NCBI RefSeq assembly: GCF_030013595.1
Contig: NZ_CP122770.1
Length of the DNA: 64,000 bases
Direction: 5' to 3' (one strand)
From: Escherichia coli
Lineage (GTDB): Bacteria > Pseudomonadota > Gammaproteobacteria > Enterobacterales > Enterobacteriaceae
Of the stretch, positions 2,287 through 36,441 are shown in pieces. A program made the position numbers and the translations under genes. The first letter of the stretch is position 1. Every line of letters begins with the position of its first letter. The notes under the pieces are model-generated. The model was not told the DNA's origin. It worked only from the letters and a program-made list of their open reading frames with translations, and did not search any database.

Positions 2287-2931
2287 TTACTGTTTGTTAT
2301 TTTCAATCAGATGATTGATTTCTTCGATCAGGGCAATAACTTCCTTACCTCCTGCCGAATAGCGCCCATGAACAGACTCAGTGATTCCCATCCCAGTCTC
2401 AATGACATCCTCAAATTCTGCACGAGCAGAAATGCGGCTCTTCATCAGCTTCAGATGTTTGAACGATGGCAGGATTGCATCAAGCTTAGGGAATTTCTTC
2501 TTGTTAGGATTAACTTTACAGAGATACAGGTGAGCAGTTATATCGGTCCCCATGATAGAGCTGATTTCGTCCAGTACTCCATCAAAATGCATCAAACCAA
2601 TACGTTCAGTCAGGGAGTCTTTTGAAGGGACAATAACGCAGTCTGCAAAGGCAATCGCAGTACGGGTAAGATCTGAGTCAAATCCCCCACAGTCAATAAG
2701 TAACGTCTTATCGCTGTTCTTGTAGGGAGTCATAATTTCGATTAACTCATCCACTGTTTTGGGTACTTTCACGGAAATTTCTTTTCCTTCAGGTCTCAGC
2801 CCCAGAATGATAGAAAGCCCGGTATGAGTATCCAGATCAACTGTATCAGACTTCATTTCACCAACAATGTTTACGGATGAAGTTGTCTTACCCACACCAC
2901 CTTTGGGATGCGTATTAGCAATAACAGGCAT
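2287..2931 (-). CDS. parA: ParA/ParF-family partition ATPase (small type Ib Walker-type ATPase)
   Basis: Deviant Walker A box KGGVGKTT near the N-terminus (MPVIANTHPKGGVGKTT), about 214 aa, GGAG RBS 9 nt upstream of the ATG at 2931. Confidence 0.85.
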   Translation of the reverse strand: MPVIANTHPKGGVGKTTSSVNIVGEMKSDTVDLDTHTGLSIILGLRPEGKEISVKVPKTVDELIEIMTPYKNSDKTLLIDCGGFDSDLTRTAIAFADCVIVPSKDSLTERIGLMHFDGVLDEISSIMGTDITAHLYLCKVNPNKKKFPKLDAILPSFKHLKLMKSRISARAEFEDVIETGMGITESVHGRYSAGGKEVIALIEEINHLIENNKQ

Positions 2932-2983
2932 AGTGTATCTCCAGAATCCACATGTAATACCCATAAAGCCCCCATAAGACACC

Positions 2984-3100
2984 TTTCGGATATCCAAGAG
3001 GTACTCAATAGATGTTTTTTTACTCTATACCGGTCCTGCATGTCAACAGAATATGAAATACCGATAATATATCCATGAGATATCCGAAAGGGATTTAAAA
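2984..3100. promoter_or_regulatory. GGATAYC-type repeats upstream of the ParA-like operon (candidate type Ib centromere/operator)
   Basis: CGGATATCCAAG (2990), ATATATCCATGAGATATCCGAAAG (3068-3090); related copies at 2232-2275 (AAGATATCC, GGATACTATATGGATACC) and 1879 (GGTATCCGATAG). Confidence 0.35.
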
Positions 3101-3110
3101 AAGTCAGAGC

Positions 3111-3890
3111 TTATGGAATTCTTTTGAGCATAGACACCGCATCGGACTCAGGCATCGAAAACTGCACCCGGTGCCGTGCAGCCACATCCAGTGCAAACAC
3201 CTTCGTGTAGACCTCCGTTGAGCTGATGGACTTATGCCCCATCAGACTCTGCAGGACCTTCAGCGGTATACCGGCATACAGCATATGCATCGCATAGGAA
3301 TGGCGGAACGTATGTGGCGTGACCGGGACAGAGAACGTCACACCATCAGCGGCAGCGGCGGCAACCGCCTCCCCAATCCAGGTCCTGACCGTTCTGTCCG
3401 TCACTTCCCAGATCCGCGCTTTCTCTGTCCTGCCTGTTCGTTTATTACGCCGTTCCATGGGGATTTTCAGTGTGGCCACCATCGTCTGCAGCTGGCTGAC
3501 GTACCAGGCGTCGGAGAGCGGAACCAGCCGGTGAGTCTGCTGACCGGCGGGCATTCTTCCTGCCGTCCTGGCGGCTTTTTCGGTCCGCTGCTTCAGAGTG
3601 GCCAGCTGCACAAACGGATACGGAGGCGTGAGCGAAAAATCCCCCCGCGTCAGCGCCAGTGCTTCATTAATGCGCGCACCGGTGTTCCACAGTGTGGCCA
3701 GCAGCATCTTGCGGCGCAGATCCGGGACGTAATGGAGCAGGGCGCTCACTTCAGGGGCCAGCAGGTATTTTGGCAGTTCATCATGAACCATCGACATCTG
3801 GCGGAGTGCCAGCGCTGCCGGATAATCGATGGCAACAGGAAGCTGAGCGGCATCCCGGGCATGGTGGATCGGTGCCGGCAGGTGCTGCAT
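3111..3890 (-). CDS. resD: Tyrosine site-specific recombinase, ResD-like plasmid multimer resolvase (phage integrase family)
   Basis: C-terminal catalytic region HTFRHSYAMHML...LMGHKSISSTEVYT (R..HxxR..Y signature); likely start MQHLPAPIHH at 3890; the close resemblance to F-plasmid ResD is from memory. Confidence 0.75.
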   Translation of the reverse strand: MQHLPAPIHHARDAAQLPVAIDYPAALALRQMSMVHDELPKYLLAPEVSALLHYVPDLRRKMLLATLWNTGARINEALALTRGDFSLTPPYPFVQLATLKQRTEKAARTAGRMPAGQQTHRLVPLSDAWYVSQLQTMVATLKIPMERRNKRTGRTEKARIWEVTDRTVRTWIGEAVAAAAADGVTFSVPVTPHTFRHSYAMHMLYAGIPLKVLQSLMGHKSISSTEVYTKVFALDVAARHRVQFSMPESDAVSMLKRIP

Positions 3891-3891
3891 A

Positions 3892-4305
3892 TCAGTGTTC
3901 ACTCCACGGGGAAACGTCGGGCAGTTTTTCCACAACCCGGTACTTTCCCGGATAACGGAGCTGGTTACCGCCACGCGTCCAGACGGTGACAACAAAACCC
4001 CCGCCCTGGTTGTTTTCGGGGAGCAGGCGATCGCACTGCTCACTCAGCATGTGGATCACGAACGGCGCATCGCTGCCGTCTTCAAATACCAGTTCCAGCG
4101 CATCGCGGCCATCCAGCGTTCCCTTACTGATGATGACGTACTCAGCCCCCCGCATCTCCCTGAGTAAATGTTTTGCCGCATCCGGGACAAGCAGCCTGGC
4201 TGCGCCGGCATTCCAGCTTAGGTAGACATATCCGGCCTGCGCCTGTACAGACTGCCAGTAATCCGTTCCGGCGACAGCCTGACCTTCATTCTCAATAAAA
4301 AACAT
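3892..4305 (-). CDS. Hypothetical protein, translationally coupled upstream partner of the tyrosine recombinase
   Basis: 137-aa ORF starting MFFIENEGQAVAG with AAGGAG RBS; its stop (3892-3894) lies 1 nt before the recombinase ATG; no family recognised. Confidence 0.5.
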   Translation of the reverse strand: MFFIENEGQAVAGTDYWQSVQAQAGYVYLSWNAGAARLLVPDAAKHLLREMRGAEYVIISKGTLDGRDALELVFEDGSDAPFVIHMLSEQCDRLLPENNQGGGFVVTVWTRGGNQLRYPGKYRVVEKLPDVSPWSEH

Positions 4306-6048: not shown

Positions 6049-7620
6049 TTACTGAGAGGTCAGATCAACTTTCCAGGGCAACAGATCGCGTACCCGGTTT
6101 GCCGGCCAATCCTGGATATGCTCAATGACGTAACGCAGCCATTTTTCTGGTTCCACATTGTTCAGACGGCATGTGCCGATCAGCGAGTACAACACCGCCG
6201 CATGTTCGCCACCGCTGTCGGAACCCGCGAAGAGCCAGTTTTTCCGGCCTACGGCCACTCCCCGTAAGGCGTTCTCTGCGATGTTGTTGTCGATTTCCAC
6301 CCAGCCATTACTGCAGTACACGTTCAGGGCCTCCCACTGTTTCAGCAGGTATGCGAACGCTTTTGCCGTATCCGAGTGACGCGACAGTGTTTTCATCTGT
6401 TCCTGTATCCAGTCATACAGTGACTGCATCAGTGGAGCCGCTCTGGCTTTTCTTGCTGCCAGACGCTGTTCTGCTGAACATCCCCGGACTTCTGCCTCGA
6501 TGACATACAGTTCACCGATACGCTGCAGGGCTTCCGTGGTGATGTCGGTTGGCACTCTTGCATGCACATCGTGGATTTTTCTCCGGGCATGGGCCATACA
6601 CGCGGCTTCCGTTATTCTGCCGGATTCGTATAACGCCCGGTAACCACCGTAAGCATCTGCCTGAAGCACACCGCTGTAACCGGCCAGGTGATTCTGTGGA
6701 TGGATACCTTTCCGGTCCGGGCTGTACGCGAACCAGACCGCCGGGGGCATCTGTGAACCGGCGTTACGGTCATCACGGACATAGACCCACAGCCGGGCAG
6801 TTCTTGTTTTACCACTGCCCGGCTCCTGGACCGGAACGGGGATATCATCCGCATGGACTTTACCGGGCATCAGCACATACTGGCGCAGCACGTCATACAG
6901 CGGCTCCAGCAGTTCAGCAACGGCACCGGTCCAGCGCCCCAGCGTGGCGCGGCTCAGTTCCACGCCCTGACGAAGGTATATTTCTGACTGGCGGTATAAC
7001 GGCAGATGGTCTGCATACTTCCCGGTGACGATATGAGCCAGAAGCCCCGCTCCGGCATAACTGCGTGCAATGGGTTTTGAAGGTACTGGTGCCTGCACGA
7101 TATGGTCGCACCGGCAACAGGCCAGTTTCGGACGTTGTGTTTCGATAACCTTAAAAGCGCTGCTGATAAGCTCCAGTTGCTCTGACACATCACACCCCAG
7201 AGGACTGAGGTCACCACCACAGGCCGGGCAGCATTCCTCTTCCGGCCGGATGACCCGGGTTTCACGGGGAAGTGAGGCCGGTAACGGCTTACGGGCTGAA
7301 GACTGGCGCAGGGCGGATGGCAGTACCGGGTCATATTGCTCATCCAGCGTTTCCGCCATTTCTTCCTGAAGTGCGCTGATTCGCTCCTGGGCTTCCTGTA
7401 TCTGCCGTTCGGTTTTAGCGCGAAGTTTTTCTGAGCTTTTACCGAACTGCATGCGCTGCAGTTTCGCAACCAGCGCCTTCAGCCGGTTGATTTCGGAAGC
7501 ATAAGCCGCCACCCGCTGTGAGAGCAGGCGGTTGTATTTCGCCATCTGGCGGATGGTGTCCTGTTGCGTCTGCAACAGTGCCCGCAGGCGGGCATTCTCA
7601 TGAGCAAGTGAGGTGTCCAT
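6049..7620 (-). CDS. tnpC: IS66-family transposase TnpC
   Basis: 523-aa protein with the zinc-finger-like CCPACGG..CCRCDH segment and conserved central and C-terminal regions typical of IS66 TnpC. Confidence 0.9.
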
Positions 7621-7639
7621 ATCCTCACTTTACAACGGG

Positions 7640-7987
7640 TTATATGCGGATGCCAGCGCGTTCCGTTCGTTTCGGGTGCTTCCAGTCGATGCCTTCGAGA
7701 AGCATGGACAACTGAGCCGGAGTAAGGTGAACCTTTCCATCGCGGGTGACCGGCCAGACGAAGCGGCCCCGCTCCAGGCGTTTGGTGAAGAGGCACAGTC
7801 CGTCACTGTCAGCCCACAGCACTTTTATCTGGTCACCCCGGCGTCCGCGGAAGATGAACAGATGCCCGGAGAACGGGTCATCCTTCAGGACGTTCTGAAC
7901 TTTTGAGGCCAGGCCGTTAAAGCCATTTCGCATATCGGTGATACCGGCAACCAGCCAGATACGCGAACCGGCAGGGAGAGATATCAT
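7640..7987 (-). CDS. tnpB: IS66-family accessory protein TnpB
   Basis: 115-aa ORF (MISLPAGSRIWLVAGITDMRNGFNGLA...) in the conserved middle position of IS66 elements. Confidence 0.85.
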   Translation of the reverse strand: MISLPAGSRIWLVAGITDMRNGFNGLASKVQNVLKDDPFSGHLFIFRGRRGDQIKVLWADSDGLCLFTKRLERGRFVWPVTRDGKVHLTPAQLSMLLEGIDWKHPKRTERAGIRI

Positions 7988-8637
7988 CAGTGGCTGCTCC
8001 CTTTCATTTCGCGGATAAGTGTCTGTAATAACGCCGGTGTCAGTTCACCTTTCAGCCTGAGAGTTCCGGCCGGCAGAACCAGCTCGCAGCACAGACTGTC
8101 TGGCAGTGTATTTATCTGTTCAGGTATCTGCACTGGTGCCGGGATTTTATTATCCGGCTCCGGAGTTAACGTCACGGGAAGTAGCGATGTTTCATGTTCG
8201 CCGGGCGGTTGCAGGCCACCGTTACGCCAGAGATGCCGCCAGTTAAAGAGCAGGTTATCGTTAATTCCATTCTCTCGAGCTATTTGTGCGACACAAGCAC
8301 CGGGTAAAAGAGTTTGCTGAACCAGTCTCCATTTAAACTCCGGTGAAAATCGGTTCCGGCGGGGTTTCTCTGCTTTCACAGGCTGAGTCACGGTCGGGGC
8401 TGAAGGGTATCGCCCCGGGAAAAGAGCCCGGGCCAGTTGCCCGCAGGAATATTCACCGGAAAGAGGCCAGTCAGTGAATACCTGGTGAAATCGCCTCACC
8501 AGAGAAAAAATGGCGGTTTTGCTGACACCGGTCTGCGCAGAAATGCGCGGGTACGACAGTGACTCGTCAAATCTCAGCTGTAGCACACGCAGGATCAATT
8601 CCGGATTGTCTGCCAGTACCGCTTTTCGTGCATTCAT
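7987..8637 (-). CDS. tnpA: IS66-family accessory protein TnpA (orf1)
   Basis: 216-aa ORF first in the IS66 operon; its stop overlaps the tnpB start; HTH-like N-terminus. Confidence 0.7.
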   Translation of the reverse strand: MNARKAVLADNPELILRVLQLRFDESLSYPRISAQTGVSKTAIFSLVRRFHQVFTDWPLSGEYSCGQLARALFPGRYPSAPTVTQPVKAEKPRRNRFSPEFKWRLVQQTLLPGACVAQIARENGINDNLLFNWRHLWRNGGLQPPGEHETSLLPVTLTPEPDNKIPAPVQIPEQINTLPDSLCCELVLPAGTLRLKGELTPALLQTLIREMKGSSH

Positions 8638-9283: not shown

Positions 9284-11164
9284 TTAAATACCCCAGAACT
9301 TATTCGCTTTTTCCACAAGCGATTCATCAATCAGCGCACCGGTGACAGCCATCAGTAAACCATACCCGATAATGCCTAAAGCGCTTCCGGTAAGAATACT
9401 GAAGACCAGTGCAACAAGAGCCGTTGCGGCATTGCCTGCTATAATGGCTTCTGTTTTAACAAAAAGAGGACGCCAGTTCTCTGTCCGGACAGCCTTACCA
9501 AACTCAGTGATCCAGTCAGCAAGACTTGTAAATTTTCCTGCATATCCCAGTCCCCGACTGAATCTGTTCAGATTAGACGATATATCAGACAGCTTCACAG
9601 ACTCAAGGGCTGCGGCAATCGCTGCACGATCTTTTGCATTAATTTTTTTGTTAATGTCAGCCCGGTACTTTTCATACGTTTTTAATGCCTCTTCAACATT
9701 ACGTATTTTCTTCCCTTTAGCCTGCCCGGCCATCTCTCTGGCTAACTGCTCAGCTTTTGCACCATATTTTTCTGAAACTGATTTCAGGAACTCTGTTGTG
9801 AAATTAATTGCGTCTTTCGTTGCCTTCAGTTCATCCTGTTTTCTTTTCTCTTCCGCTATCTTCTGATTGATGCCGGCAAGCTGGTTACGGATATTCTCTT
9901 TTTCCTTCAACAGGGCATTAAGAGCGTCATTTGCATGCTTTTGCTCATTTGTTCTGGCACTGAGGTTATTTCTCGCCGAATTTACCGCAGATTCAGCAGA
10001 GGTGATTTTATTTCTGGCATCAAGCAATCGTTGCCGTAACTTATCCCATTCAGCAACTTCAGCATTATAAATTTTCTTGTCACCTTCCACATCCTCTGTC
10101 ACCACCGGATTCCGGTCATTCAGAATATTGCGTTTATAATCCAGACCGGAATGGGTCAGAAGATAATTCAGGTTTGCACGGTTATCGATGACTGCGCTGG
10201 TTGTGATTTTTATCGTACCGGCAAATCTCGGATCACCGCTCACAACAATAGAATGATTTGTTGATGAACGCCCCGGGAATTTTTCAGGGGAAACTATCGT
10301 TTTGCCGTCAGGCGTGTTTTTCTGTTGCGTCAGCTGTTGTTCAGCTCTGGTTAATGCATTACGGGCCGTGTTAAGCGATTCCGTCACTGAACTGAGTTTA
10401 TTCCGGGCCTCTGAAATGGCCCTGTCATTCCGTGTCTGCTGCCCGAGCAGACGGGCCTGTTGTGCATCAAGAACGGCAAGGGCTGCCCCGCCATTTTTTT
10501 CCAGCTCTGACAACCGCGTGTCCAGAATACCTTTTCTGCGCTCGTATTCAGCAAGCATATCAGCGGCCTTCTTGTCTGCGTTCTGCGCATCCTTCTGCCG
10601 TTTTTCAGCCTGTTCGATTAACGACCTGGCCTCCCGGGGAGATATACGAAGAGAATCAGCATCAGCAAACAGCATCCGGCTCTCTGTATGCAGCCGGAGG
10701 GCATCATATCCGGCGATTTCAGTACGGAATCCGTATTCTCTCAGCTCTGCCTGCAGGAGTCTGAACTCCTGTCGTGTAATATCAGCGGCATCTGCGTTTC
10801 CGGCACGGAGTGTTTTCAGTGTGTTTTCATCTTTTTCCCTTGCAGCAATCGCCGCAGAGAGGCGTTTTCCGGCTTCAGTACGCTTATTCTCATTCTCTTT
10901 CTGCTGCGCGCTGAGCGTGTTTTTGTACGCTGTGATTTCCTTGTCCCTTTTTTCGATATCACTTCGGGTTGGGGAATCATCAACCCACTCGTTTCCGCCC
11001 CAGATGGTTTTGTTCCCGAAGGAACTCCATGCAGGCGGGGTACCATGAAAGACATCGACACGTGGAGGGTTTACATAAATATCAACGGCCATAATTTCAT
11101 GGCCATCTGAATCATACCCCAGCGATTCTGCACCGGGATTTGTAATACGTACAGGGTCAGACAT
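9284..11164 (-). CDS. cia: Colicin Ia (or Ib) pore-forming bacteriocin, 626 aa
   Basis: Full-length match by recollection to colicin Ia/Ib: N-terminus MSDPVRITNPGAESLGYDSDGHEIMAVDIYVNPPRVDVFHG, long coiled-coil central region, C-terminal channel domain with hydrophobic hairpin ..AGNAATALVALVFSILTGSALGIIGYGLLMAVTGALIDESLVEKANKFWGI. Confidence 0.95.
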   Translation of the reverse strand: MSDPVRITNPGAESLGYDSDGHEIMAVDIYVNPPRVDVFHGTPPAWSSFGNKTIWGGNEWVDDSPTRSDIEKRDKEITAYKNTLSAQQKENENKRTEAGKRLSAAIAAREKDENTLKTLRAGNADAADITRQEFRLLQAELREYGFRTEIAGYDALRLHTESRMLFADADSLRISPREARSLIEQAEKRQKDAQNADKKAADMLAEYERRKGILDTRLSELEKNGGAALAVLDAQQARLLGQQTRNDRAISEARNKLSSVTESLNTARNALTRAEQQLTQQKNTPDGKTIVSPEKFPGRSSTNHSIVVSGDPRFAGTIKITTSAVIDNRANLNYLLTHSGLDYKRNILNDRNPVVTEDVEGDKKIYNAEVAEWDKLRQRLLDARNKITSAESAVNSARNNLSARTNEQKHANDALNALLKEKENIRNQLAGINQKIAEEKRKQDELKATKDAINFTTEFLKSVSEKYGAKAEQLAREMAGQAKGKKIRNVEEALKTYEKYRADINKKINAKDRAAIAAALESVKLSDISSNLNRFSRGLGYAGKFTSLADWITEFGKAVRTENWRPLFVKTEAIIAGNAATALVALVFSILTGSALGIIGYGLLMAVTGALIDESLVEKANKFWGI

Positions 11165-31028: not shown

Positions 31029-31589
31029 ATGTCCGGGGGTAAAGTGCCCCTCAGACTTATTTCATTAATCCTGCTTTGTTCTCTTATTTATCCCGCCCGA
31101 GCTTCATACATCGCCCCCAAACAAATCTGGACTAACAAGTGGGACAATTGCTTTGCCGCCGCCGGCGCACGCTATCAAATTGAACCATTATTGTTGAAGG
31201 CCATTTCTGCCGGGGAATCTTCATTGAAGCCGGGCGCAATTAACATAAATAAGGACAGAAAAACAGGCAAAGCCAGTAGTACGGATTATGGGTTGATGCA
31301 AATAAACTCAACCCATATTCCAAAGCTTATAAAGATGGGCGTAATCAAAAAGTCTGAGGATTTAATTACCAAACCATGTCTTAATATCCATATAGGAAGC
31401 TGGATACTGGCAAGACATTTTCAGATATGTGGCGTCAGCTGGAATTGCCTTGGATCATACAATGCCGGATTCCGTAAGGACAGACATGAAACAAGAGAGC
31501 AATATGCTAATAAAGTATGGAGAATTTATCGTGACATGAAAGGGATATGCCTTCCCGGGCAGGGAGGCAGACAATGCAGACAATCGTAG
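31029..31589 (+). CDS. pilT: PilT, lytic transglycosylase (SLT domain)
   Basis: 186-aa protein with signal peptide and SLT motifs (ES...GLMQINS...Y). Confidence 0.8.
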   Translation: MSGGKVPLRLISLILLCSLIYPARASYIAPKQIWTNKWDNCFAAAGARYQIEPLLLKAISAGESSLKPGAININKDRKTGKASSTDYGLMQINSTHIPKLIKMGVIKKSEDLITKPCLNIHIGSWILARHFQICGVSWNCLGSYNAGFRKDRHETREQYANKVWRIYRDMKGICLPGQGGRQCRQS

Positions 31590-32230
31590 GCATAAGTCTC
31601 TCCCCTGTTTATATCCTCCCATTGATGTTCATATTTTCCATTATTGGACGAACTCTGTTATTCAGAGTTCGTTATTTTTTATCTGATACAGAACATCTCT
31701 GGTATAAGACACACACTGCAGTTCTGTCAGGAATATGGCTATATAGTATAGCTGTGGCATTAATTATTTTATCGCCATCCCAACTTCTCTACCGTATTCA
31801 TGCTGTTCTTATTCTTTCGTTCATGCTGCAAATGGCAGTAACGGATGCACTAACAGGCCTCTTACCGGGTACATTCACCAGGCGTTTTTTAATCGCTGGA
31901 ATATTATCACAAATCACAACTGATATATGGTGGCTCCGTGCAACAGAAATTGTCTCTGCCGCAATTGTCTTATTCTGTCTGCATAAACTGGTTAACCGCC
32001 ATCGTCTTAATATTGGCACAGGAGACCTGTGGCTTATTGCAGGTATTACCGCATGGTCAGGGCTATATAACGCCATATGGAGTGTGTTGCTGGGCGCAGG
32101 AGGATTTGTCTTATGGCATTCAACATGGTGCATAAAAGGACATAAAGAAGGCCCACTGGGTCCATGGCTGTGTCTTGGCCATGTCCTTTTGCTACTGGAT
32201 AATCTTTATCAACCACTATGGGTAATCTGA
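31574..32230 (+). CDS. pilU: PilU, prepilin peptidase
   Basis: Polytopic membrane protein; start at ATG 31574 after GGGAGG RBS gives 218 aa; conserved position before pilV. Confidence 0.8.
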
Positions 32231-33654
32231 TGAAAAAATATGACCGAGGCTGGGCATCGCTGGAAATTGGCGCGGCTTTATTGATTGTTATGATCATAGT
32301 TGCCTGGGGAGCAGGCATATGGCAGGACTATTTAAAAACCAAAGGTTGGCAGGCTGAAGCTCGTCTTGTCAGCAACTGGGCCAGTGCAGCCCGCTCTTAT
32401 ATAGGGAAAAACTACACAACTCTCCAGGCAAGTAGTACCACATCAACCCCTGCCGTTATCACGACAACCATGCTGAAAAATACCGGCTTTTTGTCCAGCG
32501 GCTTTATTGAGACAAACAGCGAGGGGCAGCGGTTACAGGCATATGTAGTTCGAAACGCCCAAAACCCGGAATTACTACAGGCAATGGTTGTATCCAGTGG
32601 TGGCACCCCTTATCCAGTGAAAGCACTTATCCAGATGGCTAAGGATATTACCACTGGTCTTGGTGGATATATCCAGGACGGCAAAACAGCCACAGGTGCA
32701 TTACGTTCCTGGTCAGTAGCTTTAAGTAATTATGGTGCCAAAAGCGGTAACGGGCATATTGCCGTACTGTTATCGACAGATGAACTTAGTGGTGCAGCAG
32801 AGGACACTGATCGTCTTTACAGATTCCAGGTCAATGGTCGCCCTGACTTAAACAAAATGCACACGGCCATTGATATGGGATCAAATAACCTGAATAACAT
32901 TGGGGCAGTAAATGCCCAGACTGGTAATTTCAGCGGCAATGTGAATGGTGTAAATGGCACTTTCAGCGGTCAGGTAAAAGGCAATAGCGGAAACTTTGAC
33001 GTAAATGTCACCGCTGGCGGTGATATCAGAAGTAATAATGGTTGGTTAATTACTCGTAACAGCAAAGGCTGGCTCAATGAAACTCACGGTGGCGGATTTT
33101 ATATGTCCGACGGATCATGGGTTCGAAGTGTAAACAACAAGGGCATCTATACCGGCGGTCAGGTGAAAGGCGGTACTGTTCGGGCTGATGGTCGCCTTTA
33201 TACTGGTGAATACTTACAACTGGAAAGAACTGCCGTTGCTGGCGCATCATGTTCGCCTAACGGCCTTGTAGGCCGCGATAATACAGGGGCAATACTTTCG
33301 TGCCAATCCGGTACGTGGAAGACTTCTGGTTCGCTCAATGGTTCTTACACAAACTTAGGTTCACATAGAGGTTCATTCTCAGGGCGGAATTCAGGGGGCA
33401 GTACATTGTTTATTTATGCATCTGGAGGTAATGGAGGATCTGCCGGAGGTGCATGTGCAAATACATCCCGACTGCAGGGATATGTTGGTGGGACGCTAAT
33501 TAGCGTGAATGCCAGTAATAACCCTGCATATGGAAAAACAGCCTTTATCAGCTTTGCTGTACCTGCAGGTACTTCCTATCAGATAACATCCTATCCAACA
33601 GAAAATACATCATGTGGTGCCGGGGTATTTTCAGTATTTGGATATCAAACTTAA
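32218..33654 (+). CDS. pilV: PilV, shufflon-variable thin-pilus tip adhesin (current C-terminal segment)
   Basis: Prepilin-like N-terminus; constant region ends at the first sfx repeat (33300-33318, encoding CQSGTW), followed by the variable C-terminus. Confidence 0.9.
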
Positions 33655-35236
33655 TTGAGCGTTACACACGACGCAATACAACCTGTCTTATGCTCGTATT
33701 TGTACCATTTGCGTGAACCTGCTGGGCTCTCAACTACCTGGCAGTAGTGGGCATCCTCTGCGTTGCCCACTCTGGCAATGGCACAGAAGTCGAATTGCCC
33801 CAGATAACCTGTGGTGGAAAGCTGAGTAACTTTGAGTTTTCCACCTATTGTCCCCACGTACCGGATTGGCACGTAGGCCAGTGCCAATCCGGTCGGTGGT
33901 CAGGGGGTAATAAAATTAATTACTCAGCATGTAATTGGTACAAATCATCCGTAGCAATGAATCACTTTATCGGCGGTAAGAGTGGTGGTTCGATCTATTA
34001 CAAGCCGATTCAATGTCCGACTGGATACATTATGACTGGAACACGCATGTACGGTATTGGTGATGGTGTTGATGAGGAACATGTCGATGCCTACTGTTGC
34101 CCCTTTAATTAAGCTCCAGCACCAGGAAGATTGAGGCATGTGACTGATATGGTCCCACCAGACTCATAATTTCCCCAAGCATAATTACTCACATACCAAA
34201 CGTTGTTTTGGTCGGAATATACCTGTTGAAAACCACCAAAGGGTGAGCCATTCAGGTAAGTCCATGAGCAATATGCATGGACCCCGAGCCTTAAATTACG
34301 AGTGTTTTTAGCTATGTTGTAGGTCTGCGTTGTGAATTGAATTTTAGGAGCGCCCCAGGTACCGGATTGGCACGTAGGCCAGCAGCGCCAGCAATTTAAT
34401 CTCAGTTCTGACACGCGACGACATAACTACATTTTCCGGTTAAATCAGCTCTAAATGTCCCTTTATGGAAATTGTATTCATCATAAAAACCACATTTAAC
34501 AATTCGATTTGCATCATAAGTTGCAACTGATCCTGCAAAGTAATTCGGCTTCCAACCTTGAGGGTTTTCTGCATTGCTCACACTCCATGAGCACTGACTG
34601 GCAGAAAACCCTGTTGGCAGCGGTATTTGCTGACCATTTGCTATACGACCAGTTATCACCGTACTACCAGAATTGCTTTTACGCCAAGTACCGGATTGGC
34701 ACTGGCCTACGTGCCAATCCGGTACCTGGAGAAAGGTAGGATCTGGTGAGCTTCAAATTGCTACAGCACAGGCCACAGGTTGGCGCTTTCCTGGAGCAAC
34801 AGCTACCTGTCCAACTGGAAAACGTGTTACAGGTGGCGGCGGAATATGCACCTCACGAACTGGTTACATATGGCTTACCAGGTCATTCCCATCAGCCAAT
34901 AACTCATGGTCGGCTGCGTGCGATACAACCGAAGATCAGAATGGTTCAATAACTGTATATGCCATTTGCCAATAAGCTATTTCAAGCAAGTAATCTTCAT
35001 AAAGTAGGACGAATACTGTGTGTAGTTTTTGGCTTGCCAAGTCATCTCGCCGTTAGAGTCAGGCATGTCAATAGGAACGACTTCTGTTTCTGCCATTTCA
35101 CGCCCGTCAATACGATAGGTGTTAATACACAGTTTAAACCTCCCTAAGACCTGTGTGTTTTTGGGATATAACGTAAATGTTTTTATATTCGTCCATATCG
35201 ACGCTGATGATGATTTCCAGGTACCGGATTGGCACG
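33300..35236. other. Shufflon: multiple-inversion region with seven 19-bp sfx repeats carrying alternative pilV 3' segments
   Basis: 19-bp repeats GTGCCAATCCGGTNNNTGG at 33300(+), 33854(-), 33880(+), 34356(-), 34684(-), 34711(+), 35218(-); every ORF in the region begins in-frame at a repeat (CQSG(T/R)W...) and so represents an alternative PilV C-terminus. Confidence 0.9.
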
Positions 35237-35286: not shown

Positions 35287-36441
35287 ATGCCGTCTCCACG
35301 CATCCGTAAAATGTCCCTGTCACGCGCACTGGATAAGTACCTGAAAACAGTTTCTGTTCACAAGAAAGGGCATCAACAGGAGTTTTACCGGAGCAATGTT
35401 ATCAAGCGATATCCCATTGCCCTTCGGAATATGGACGAAATAACAACCGTTGATATTGCTACATACAGAGACGTTCGTTTAGCAGAAATCAACCCCCGAA
35501 CGGGTAAACCCATTACAGGTAATACTGTACGTCTTGAACTCGCCCTTCTGTCATCTCTGTTCAATATTGCTCGTGTTGAATGGGGAACCTGTCGTACTAA
35601 CCCGGTTGAACTGGTTCGCAAGCCGAAAGTATCCTCCGGACGAGATCGCCGGCTAACGTCTTCAGAAGAACGTCGCCTTTCTCGCTATTTCCGCGAAAAA
35701 AATCTGATGTTGTATGTCATTTTCCATCTTGCCCTTGAGACAGCCATGCGGCAGGGCGAAATACTGGCCTTACGTTGGGAGCACATTGATTTGCGCCACG
35801 GTGTGGCTCATTTACCTGAAACCAAAAACGGTCACTCACGGGATGTTCCTCTGTCCAGACGTGCCCGTAACTTTCTTCAGATGATGCCCGTTAATCTCCA
35901 CGGCAATGTTTTTGATTACACCGCATCCGGCTTTAAAAATGCCTGGAGAATAGCCACACAACGACTTCGCATCGAGGACCTGCATTTTCACGATCTACGG
36001 CATGAAGCAATAAGCCGCTTCTTCGAACTGGGTAGCCTGAATGTAATGGAGATTGCTGCAATATCAGGACATCGTTCCATGAATATGCTGAAACGGTATA
36101 CTCATCTTCGTGCATGGCAACTGGTCAGTAAACTTGATGCCCGCCGGCGGCAGACACAAAAAGTGGCAGCATGGTTTGTGCCGTATCCTGCCCATATCAC
36201 GACCATCAATGAAGAAAATGGGCAGAAAGCGCATCGTATTGAGATCGGTGATTTTGATAACCTTCACGTCACTGCCACAACGAAAGAGGAAGCAGTTCAC
36301 CGCGCCAGTGAGGTTTTGTTGCGTACACTGGCCATTGCAGCACAGAAAGGCGAACGTGTCCCATCTCCCGGAGCGTTACCTGTTAACGACCCTGACTACA
36401 TTATGATTTGCCCTCTGAACCCGGGCAGCACCCCGCTGTAA
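35287..36441 (+). CDS. rci: Rci, shufflon-specific tyrosine recombinase
   Basis: Tyrosine recombinase catalytic residues (R..HDLRHE..H..Y); start MPSPRIRK gives 384 aa; directly adjacent to the shufflon. Confidence 0.9.

Follow-up and report, generated by a model that had tools for sequence, protein, structure and literature searches.

A sequence-predicted R64-type pilV shufflon in an IncI1-complex conjugative plasmid, with segment order A-C-D-B and an A' end frameshifted as assembled

How many functional PilV tips does this shufflon encode, and does the order in which the assembly presents them say anything lasting about the isolate? Here, based on the entire 64-kb window (the whole stretch of Escherichia coli DNA that was analysed), the locus is almost certainly a canonical R64-type shufflon of an IncI1-complex conjugative plasmid, with its segments in the order A-C-D-B, PilVA as the expressed form and the A' end frameshifted as written.

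The shufflon closes the pil operon, which encodes the thin (type IVb) pilus of this I-complex conjugative plasmid and has pilV as its last gene. As assembled, pilV (32230-33654, + strand) encodes 474 aa in the PilVA form, its ORF passing through the first sfx repeat; the constant part occupies 32230-33299 (+ strand) and the variable part starts inside sfx1. The constant region was assigned to Pfam Shufflon_N (E=4e-185, residues 33-361). Downstream, rci (35287-36441, + strand) is intact and codes for a shufflon-specific tyrosine recombinase of 384 aa, which matches Pfam Phage_integrase (E=6e-24), aligns with the HP1 integrase across its HDLRH (HxxR) and GH...RY motif regions, and is identical to the Rci of R64 at 383 of 384 residues (N308 here, D in R64). 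Together with the R64-like segments described below, the Shufflon_N domain and this near-identical Rci bear out the original prediction that the locus is a known system, a pilV shufflon operated by Rci on sfx sites. Upstream of pilV we found an A24 prepilin peptidase (pilU), pilT (a small ORF, 31029-31589, occupying the position of the R64 lytic transglycosylase gene) and pilS (PilS domain, PilS-type major pilin), as well as other long, intact ORFs placed like the pil genes of R64. The ORFs downstream of rci lie at the positions of R64 traE and traF, the second being classified as Pfam TraF_2. The whole window matched IncI1-complex conjugative plasmids from E. coli, Salmonella and Shigella at 98-99.8%, with a matched backbone comprising colicin Ia, yagA, repA, the pil genes and the tra genes. 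At the level of sequence, the locus confirms that the window represents an IncI1-complex conjugative plasmid in which the thin-pilus and shufflon module is complete; given that completeness, the plasmid can probably mate efficiently in liquid with a range of recipients.

In R64, an sfx site has a 7-bp core with a variable arm to its left and, to its right, a conserved arm of 12 bp (PMC11852207, PMC5430464, PMC9045228). A search of the entire 64-kb window on both strands with the 19-bp pattern GTGCCAATCCGGTNNNTGG, allowing up to two mismatches, recovered seven sites, all seven of them perfect and all within 33300-35235, with none elsewhere in the window. By chance 0.03 sites would be expected, and seven were reached in none of 100 shuffles (0/100). 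A general repeat finder and a separate scan returned a concordant set. Seven repeats had been predicted at 33300-35236, which is correct in number and, to within one base, in its limits. Each site is built of the 12-bp conserved arm GTGCCAATCCGG and a 7-bp core, and the array, placed between the pilV constant region and the intact rci, contains both orientations (three sites on the + strand, four on the - strand). The first site, sfx1 (33300-33318, +; GTGCCAATCCGGTACGTGG), is the fixed site that ends the pilV constant region and encodes CQSGTW. It is followed by sfx2 (33854-33872, -; core ACGTGG), which leads into A', by an 8-bp spacer (33873-33880; GTAGGCCA), and by sfx3 (33881-33899, +; core CGGTGG), which encodes CQSGRW and leads into the forward ORF of segment C. 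The other, reverse ORF of this segment is entered from sfx4 (34355-34373, -; core ACCTGG) and D' from sfx5 (34684-34702, -; core ACTTGG). A second 8-bp spacer (34703-34710; TGGCCTAC), the reverse complement of the first, separates sfx5 from sfx6 (34711-34729, +; core ACCTGG), which leads into the forward ORF of segment B, and the final site, sfx7 (35217-35235, -; core ACCTGG), lies 51 bp upstream of rci. From sfx1 to sfx7 the orientations therefore read + - + - - + -, and the alternation that had been predicted does not hold, because sfx4 and sfx5 are direct repeats. Two further pairs, sfx2/sfx3 and sfx5/sfx6, stand back to back across the same 8-bp spacer in one or the other orientation. All seven sites are in frame with a downstream reading frame starting CQSG(T/R)W, although after sfx2 the A' frame breaks.

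The seven sites delimit four invertible segments with seven ORF ends, in the order A-C-D-B. Segment A (33319-33853, 535 bp) carries the expressed forward ORF A (stop 33652-33654) and, read through sfx2, the reverse ORF A'. The prediction that the current pilV ends with the piece at 33319-33654 is in line with this, since the ORF runs through sfx1 to its stop at 33654 and yields PilVA. Segment C (33900-34354, 455 bp) contains a silent forward ORF of 76 aa from its sfx (stop 34110-34112) and a silent reverse ORF of 87 aa from sfx4 (- strand, stop 34109-34111). Segment D (34374-34683, - strand, 310 bp) holds a single silent ORF, D', of 99 aa from sfx5 (stop 34402-34404). The other end of segment D is without an sfx of its own, opens with the spacer-like GTAGGCCAG, and has its tail adjoining the outer side of sfx4. 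Because sfx4 and sfx5 form a direct pair, the D tail is tied to the outer side of an sfx arm, and the occurrence of CTGCTGGCCTAC 5' of sfx4 here and 5' of the A' site in R64 matches such a tie. Segment B (34730-35216, 487 bp) carries a silent forward ORF of 87 aa (putatively B', stop 34973-34975) and a silent reverse ORF of 85 aa (putatively B, - strand, stop 34977-34979). Six silent ends are thus present, as had been predicted, but they belong to four segments rather than to six separate ones, and five of them are intact, A' being out of frame.

Letters were given to the segments from several kinds of evidence. The first segment is A because R64 expresses an identical form and LC567066 carries a label for the flanking A', and the one-ORF segment is D because identical DNA is labelled as the PilVD' C-terminal segment in LC567051; these two annotations name A' and D' only. 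In R721, both homologues of the 455-bp segment ORFs sit together in one segment, so that this segment is not B and becomes C by elimination. The homologue of the 487-bp forward ORF is paired in R721 with D' in a single segment, and the fused BD segment of R721 is described as carrying B' and D' without B (PMC5430464, PMC9045228). In addition, an ISEcp1-blaCTX-M-1 unit in pHV114 (KM377238) interrupts the ORF starting CQSGTWKSSSASIWTNIKT, and an ISEcp1-blaCTX-M-1 unit disrupts pilVB in the ESBL plasmid p1ESBL (bioRxiv preprint 10.1101/2022.07.06.498992), the two insertions being likened by description. From the R721 BD segment and the ISEcp1 insertion, we infer that the 487-bp segment is B, with B' running forward from sfx6 and B backward from sfx7. 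A translated search with the forward ORF of this segment led to a single PGAP annotation, that of a 54% homologue from an IncK2/Z plasmid as "shufflon protein B". The annotation supports the letter B but disagrees about the prime with what R721 and ISEcp1 indicate; for this conflict, the literature-linked evidence was adopted. When the six silent peptides were concatenated and searched against a protein collection, every match bore the generic PilV name only.

What the array would do follows from published work on R64. Rci of R64 is reported to recombine inverted sfx pairs and not direct ones (Gyohda 2006, cited in PMC11852207; PMC11850598), and the PilV tip adhesins of R64 bind differing recipient lipopolysaccharide structures, which sets recipient specificity in liquid mating (PMC5430464, PMC11852207, PMC9045228). 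In the present plasmid, Rci would be expected to act on inverted sfx pairs and to flip one or several segments, an inversion would join the pilV constant region in frame to another 3' end that has no promoter of its own, and the cell would then make one of several PilV tip adhesins, each for a different recipient lipopolysaccharide. A promoter and terminator scan of the shufflon region yielded promoter-like sites no more often than in shuffles, and no feature that would alter this account. Inversion in this isolate, and recipient specificity set by the selected PilV, are what the R64 studies lead us to infer, given the near-identity of the locus to R64 and the many arrangements of the same segments in related plasmid records. 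An inactive or frozen shufflon was considered and rejected, given the intact rci and the many arrangements found in related records.

To describe the reachable states, we used a token model in which recombination takes place between every inverted sfx pair, whatever the core type, and all resulting states are enumerated. The model reached 288 segment arrangements, in which all seven ends can occupy the expression site (40 to 48 arrangements each), while the ORF-less end of segment D never does so. Starting from the assembled arrangement, the model predicts that a single inversion would bring A', the reverse C ORF, D' or B to the expression site, and that the forward C ORF and B' would each take two. 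The original prediction that inversions can fuse any of several segments to the constant region is therefore sound for the full set of modelled arrangements, but a single inversion gives access to four silent ends only. Excision of segment D through the direct pair sfx4/sfx5 was also rejected as a candidate event, because direct sfx sites are reportedly unused by Rci (Gyohda 2006, cited in PMC11852207; PMC11850598), and because D is kept in related plasmids.

The one departure that would change the repertoire lies in A'. At the A' frameshift site (33845-33855, - strand), the C-run at 33852-33855 counts four bases (C4), one fewer than in R64 (C5). Reading TGG GGA CAA TAG on its coding strand, a pilV-A' fusion would meet a stop at 33845-33847, so that the fusion PilV would end ...CQSGTW-GQ-stop, two codons past the sfx, and the 67-residue A' tail would be lost. 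The change from C5 to C4 is a -1 frameshift, and five silent ends are therefore intact instead of six; if the base call is correct, the repertoire would be six functional tips rather than seven. We surveyed the allele with a 93-nt query across the site against PLSDB, in which a C5 allele is expected to span 94 nt. The query matched 1217 plasmid records, and the C4 allele was present at 100% identity in 20 of them (20 of about 1208 comparable records, ~1.7%); the great majority of the remaining records span 94 nt, as C5 predicts (~98% of related plasmids). Carriers of C4 come from five species, i.e., E. coli, Salmonella, Shigella, Klebsiella and E. albertii. Four of the six records inspected (CP009566, CP010831, KM377238 and CP090862) have the C4 end in the expression site, and their feature tables list no PilV CDS; in pHV114 (KM377238), C4 yields a 369-aa ORF with the end ...CQSGTWGQ. 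A literature search for a frameshift in pilV or A' returned no relevant report.

We consider it probable, with appreciable room for doubt, that the missing base beside sfx2 is a sequencing or assembly artefact, and that all seven ends are intact as they are in R64. Such a loss could arise from homopolymer under-calling, or from polishing across differently arranged molecules at the inversion junction, either of which would drop a base. What has been lost is one base of a five-base homopolymer that sits right on that junction, and the C4 records are scattered across species and over at least two alleles of the pilV constant region. Within one series of canine E. coli with consecutive accessions, CP023376 (92420 bp) has C4 and CP023365 (92421 bp) has C5. 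In CP090862, which also carries C4, a further homopolymer loss lies 40 nt away, in the constant region, and shufflon heterogeneity has been reported to defeat assembly and polishing (PMC5430464). Against an artefact, the other long backbone ORFs in the window appear intact, and a 25-kb tra stretch aligns with relatives colinearly, in one piece and at equal length; indels are therefore not a general feature of the assembly.

This lack of indel-error signs in the rest of the window speaks for a real mutation instead, by which this plasmid and about 2% of its relatives would be without the A' adhesin. We regard this as a possibility to be held tentatively. It is favoured by the recurrence of C4 in independent records, and by its presence at the expression site in four of the six inspected records, where the 369-aa ORF stands without a listed PilV CDS. 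The artefact-like features (a homopolymer at the junction and a scattered distribution), the literature search without a report of C4, and a G5/C5 tract that is short for frequent slippage argue against it. If C4 is real, a flip of segment A would cut PilV right after CQSGTW, giving a null state for liquid mating. The lost base belongs to the variable left arm of the sfx site from which A' is read. We think it very improbable that C4 is a genuine and recurrent null position; if this were true, about 2% of IncI1-type plasmids would hold a tip-less PilV position, an "off" setting for liquid mating atop the inversion switch. Returning to the artefact that we favour, the homopolymer at the A' junction bears on whether an annotator calls pilV a pseudogene or counts seven functional adhesin tips.

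A similar concern applies to the segment order, which might be an assembly chimera, i.e., a consensus of coexisting arrangements to which no molecule corresponds. Shufflons are a documented source of misassembly, with many arrangements per clone (PMC5430464). However, the order written here is a legal state, two inversions from that of R64, the spacers are intact, as is the unit formed by the D tail and the adjoining sfx arm, and the same order recurs, as a single colinear match, in several other complete plasmids (e.g., CP060965 and AP019190). We thus judge a chimera unlikely, and take A-C-D-B to be an order that a molecule can adopt. According to PMC5430464, and to Brouwer 2019 as cited in PMC9045228, a clone holds many shufflon arrangements and the region rearranges constantly, so that the segment order is without lasting meaning. 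The original prediction had recorded the locus for the readable order of this isolate, which has little value, the assembly order being a snapshot or a consensus of a mixed population; in the assemblies of such plasmids, segment order should not be taken as a stable property of the strain. The importance of the present locus beyond correct annotation is slight.

The closest relative among described systems is the R64 shufflon (IncI1; Komano and co-workers), with whose region in NC_005014 / AP005147 we compared the locus piece by piece. Both have seven sfx sites with the same cores (ACGTGG twice, CGGTGG once, ACCTGG three times, ACTTGG once), the segments A, B, C and D, the 8-bp spacers, and a location between pilU/pilV and traE. 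Over 1787 bp, four SNPs and one indel separate the four segments from those of R64, made up of two SNPs and the 1-bp deletion in segment A (536 bp in R64), one SNP in segment D, whose protein is 100% identical, and one SNP in segment B, whose proteins are likewise 100% identical; segment C shows 100% nucleotide and amino acid identity. When the C-terminal peptides were translated from each sfx, six of seven (117, 76, 87, 99, 87 and 85 aa) were 100% identical to those of R64. PilV as a whole is identical to the PilV of the R64 record at 462 of 474 residues, its C-terminal 117 aa being 100% identical to R64 A and all 12 differences falling within the N-terminal 224 residues. What sets the window apart from R64 is the 1-bp deletion in A', the 12 amino acid changes in the N-terminal part of the PilV constant region, and the order of segments, which is A-D-C(inverted)-B in the R64 record versus A-C-D-B here, exactly two Rci-type inversions away in the token model. 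Of the seven ends of R64 (A, A', B, B', C, C' and D'), the window has six in frame, and A' is shifted by -1.

ColIb-P9 (IncI1), compared by description, has the same system in the same pil/rci context but reportedly contains segments A, B and C only (PMC5430464), whereas the window also has D and therefore belongs to the R64 type. The IncI2 plasmids R721 and TP114 share the sfx core TGCCAATCCGG, an adjacent rci homologue, and counterparts of the A, A', C, C', B' and D' ends that are about 70-90% identical, although their backbone and pilV constant region are unlike those of the window. The R721 shufflon consists of three segments, one of them a BD segment that fuses B' and D', with six sfx sites (PMC5430464), and TP114 has eight ends including a D ORF (PMC9045228), which is absent from both R64 and the window. 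The R64-type shufflon is a system already known in detail, and the copy described here is nearly identical to its type example.

The frameshifted A' end, in which a run of four C residues stands beside sfx2 where R64 has five, was found directly behind the pilV constant region in four public plasmid records (CP009566, CP010831, KM377238 and CP090862). In each of them pilV ends ...CQSGTWGQ-stop, as at positions 2566-3675 (minus strand) of KM377238, and none of the four records lists a PilV CDS. CP090862 carries a further loss in the pilV constant region, from G4 to G3, approximately 40 nt upstream of the A' frameshift.

Shufflon ORF B of pHV114 (KM377238) is broken by an ISEcp1 transposase (11-1515 of that record), 13 codons past the sfx-encoded CQSGTW. 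We assume that this transposase belongs to an ISEcp1-blaCTX-M-1 unit and that the inserted unit carries blaCTX-M-1. Since the unit lies inside ORF B, it belongs to an invertible segment; an insertion of this kind within an invertible shufflon segment has been described in a preprint for p1ESBL (10.1101/2022.07.06.498992).

Among database proteins, a 344-aa Shigella sonnei entry (P0045) named "phage integrase family site-specific recombinase" matched one shufflon C-terminal segment at 100% identity across 17% of the concatenated query of six silent peptides, and looks like a gene call extending from a shufflon segment into rci. Besides Rci, the window holds at 2287-4043 (minus strand) a second tyrosine recombinase of 310 aa with a Phage_integrase domain, which is unrelated to Rci and which, together with an adjoining ParA/MipZ-like ATPase, presumably forms the plasmid's multimer-resolution and partition module. 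Immediately upstream of the gene for colicin Ia (9284-11164, minus strand) is an IS66-family element (6049-8637, minus strand) made up of two ORFs, a transposase (DDE_Tnp_IS66, 523 aa) and an accessory ORF (HTH_Tnp_1). The element is missing from several of the closest plasmid relatives, whose coverage of that part of the window is only 80-89%.

The sfx-less end of segment D opens with GTAGGCCAG (34374-34382), which matches in sequence the 8-bp spacer between the back-to-back sfx pairs (33873-33880 and 34703-34710). Judged by this shared spacer, D looks like a segment that has lost its second sfx and its ORF; a "D" ORF is reportedly retained in TP114, an IncI2 plasmid (PMC9045228).

Where arm and core meet, the B-end sfx of pN441 (LC567071, 4190-4208; GTGCCAATCCGGGACGTGG) has G in place of T. 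This variant hints that sfx cores are sometimes swapped or mutated: the B-end core is A-type in pN441, whereas it reads TACCTGG in both the window and R64.
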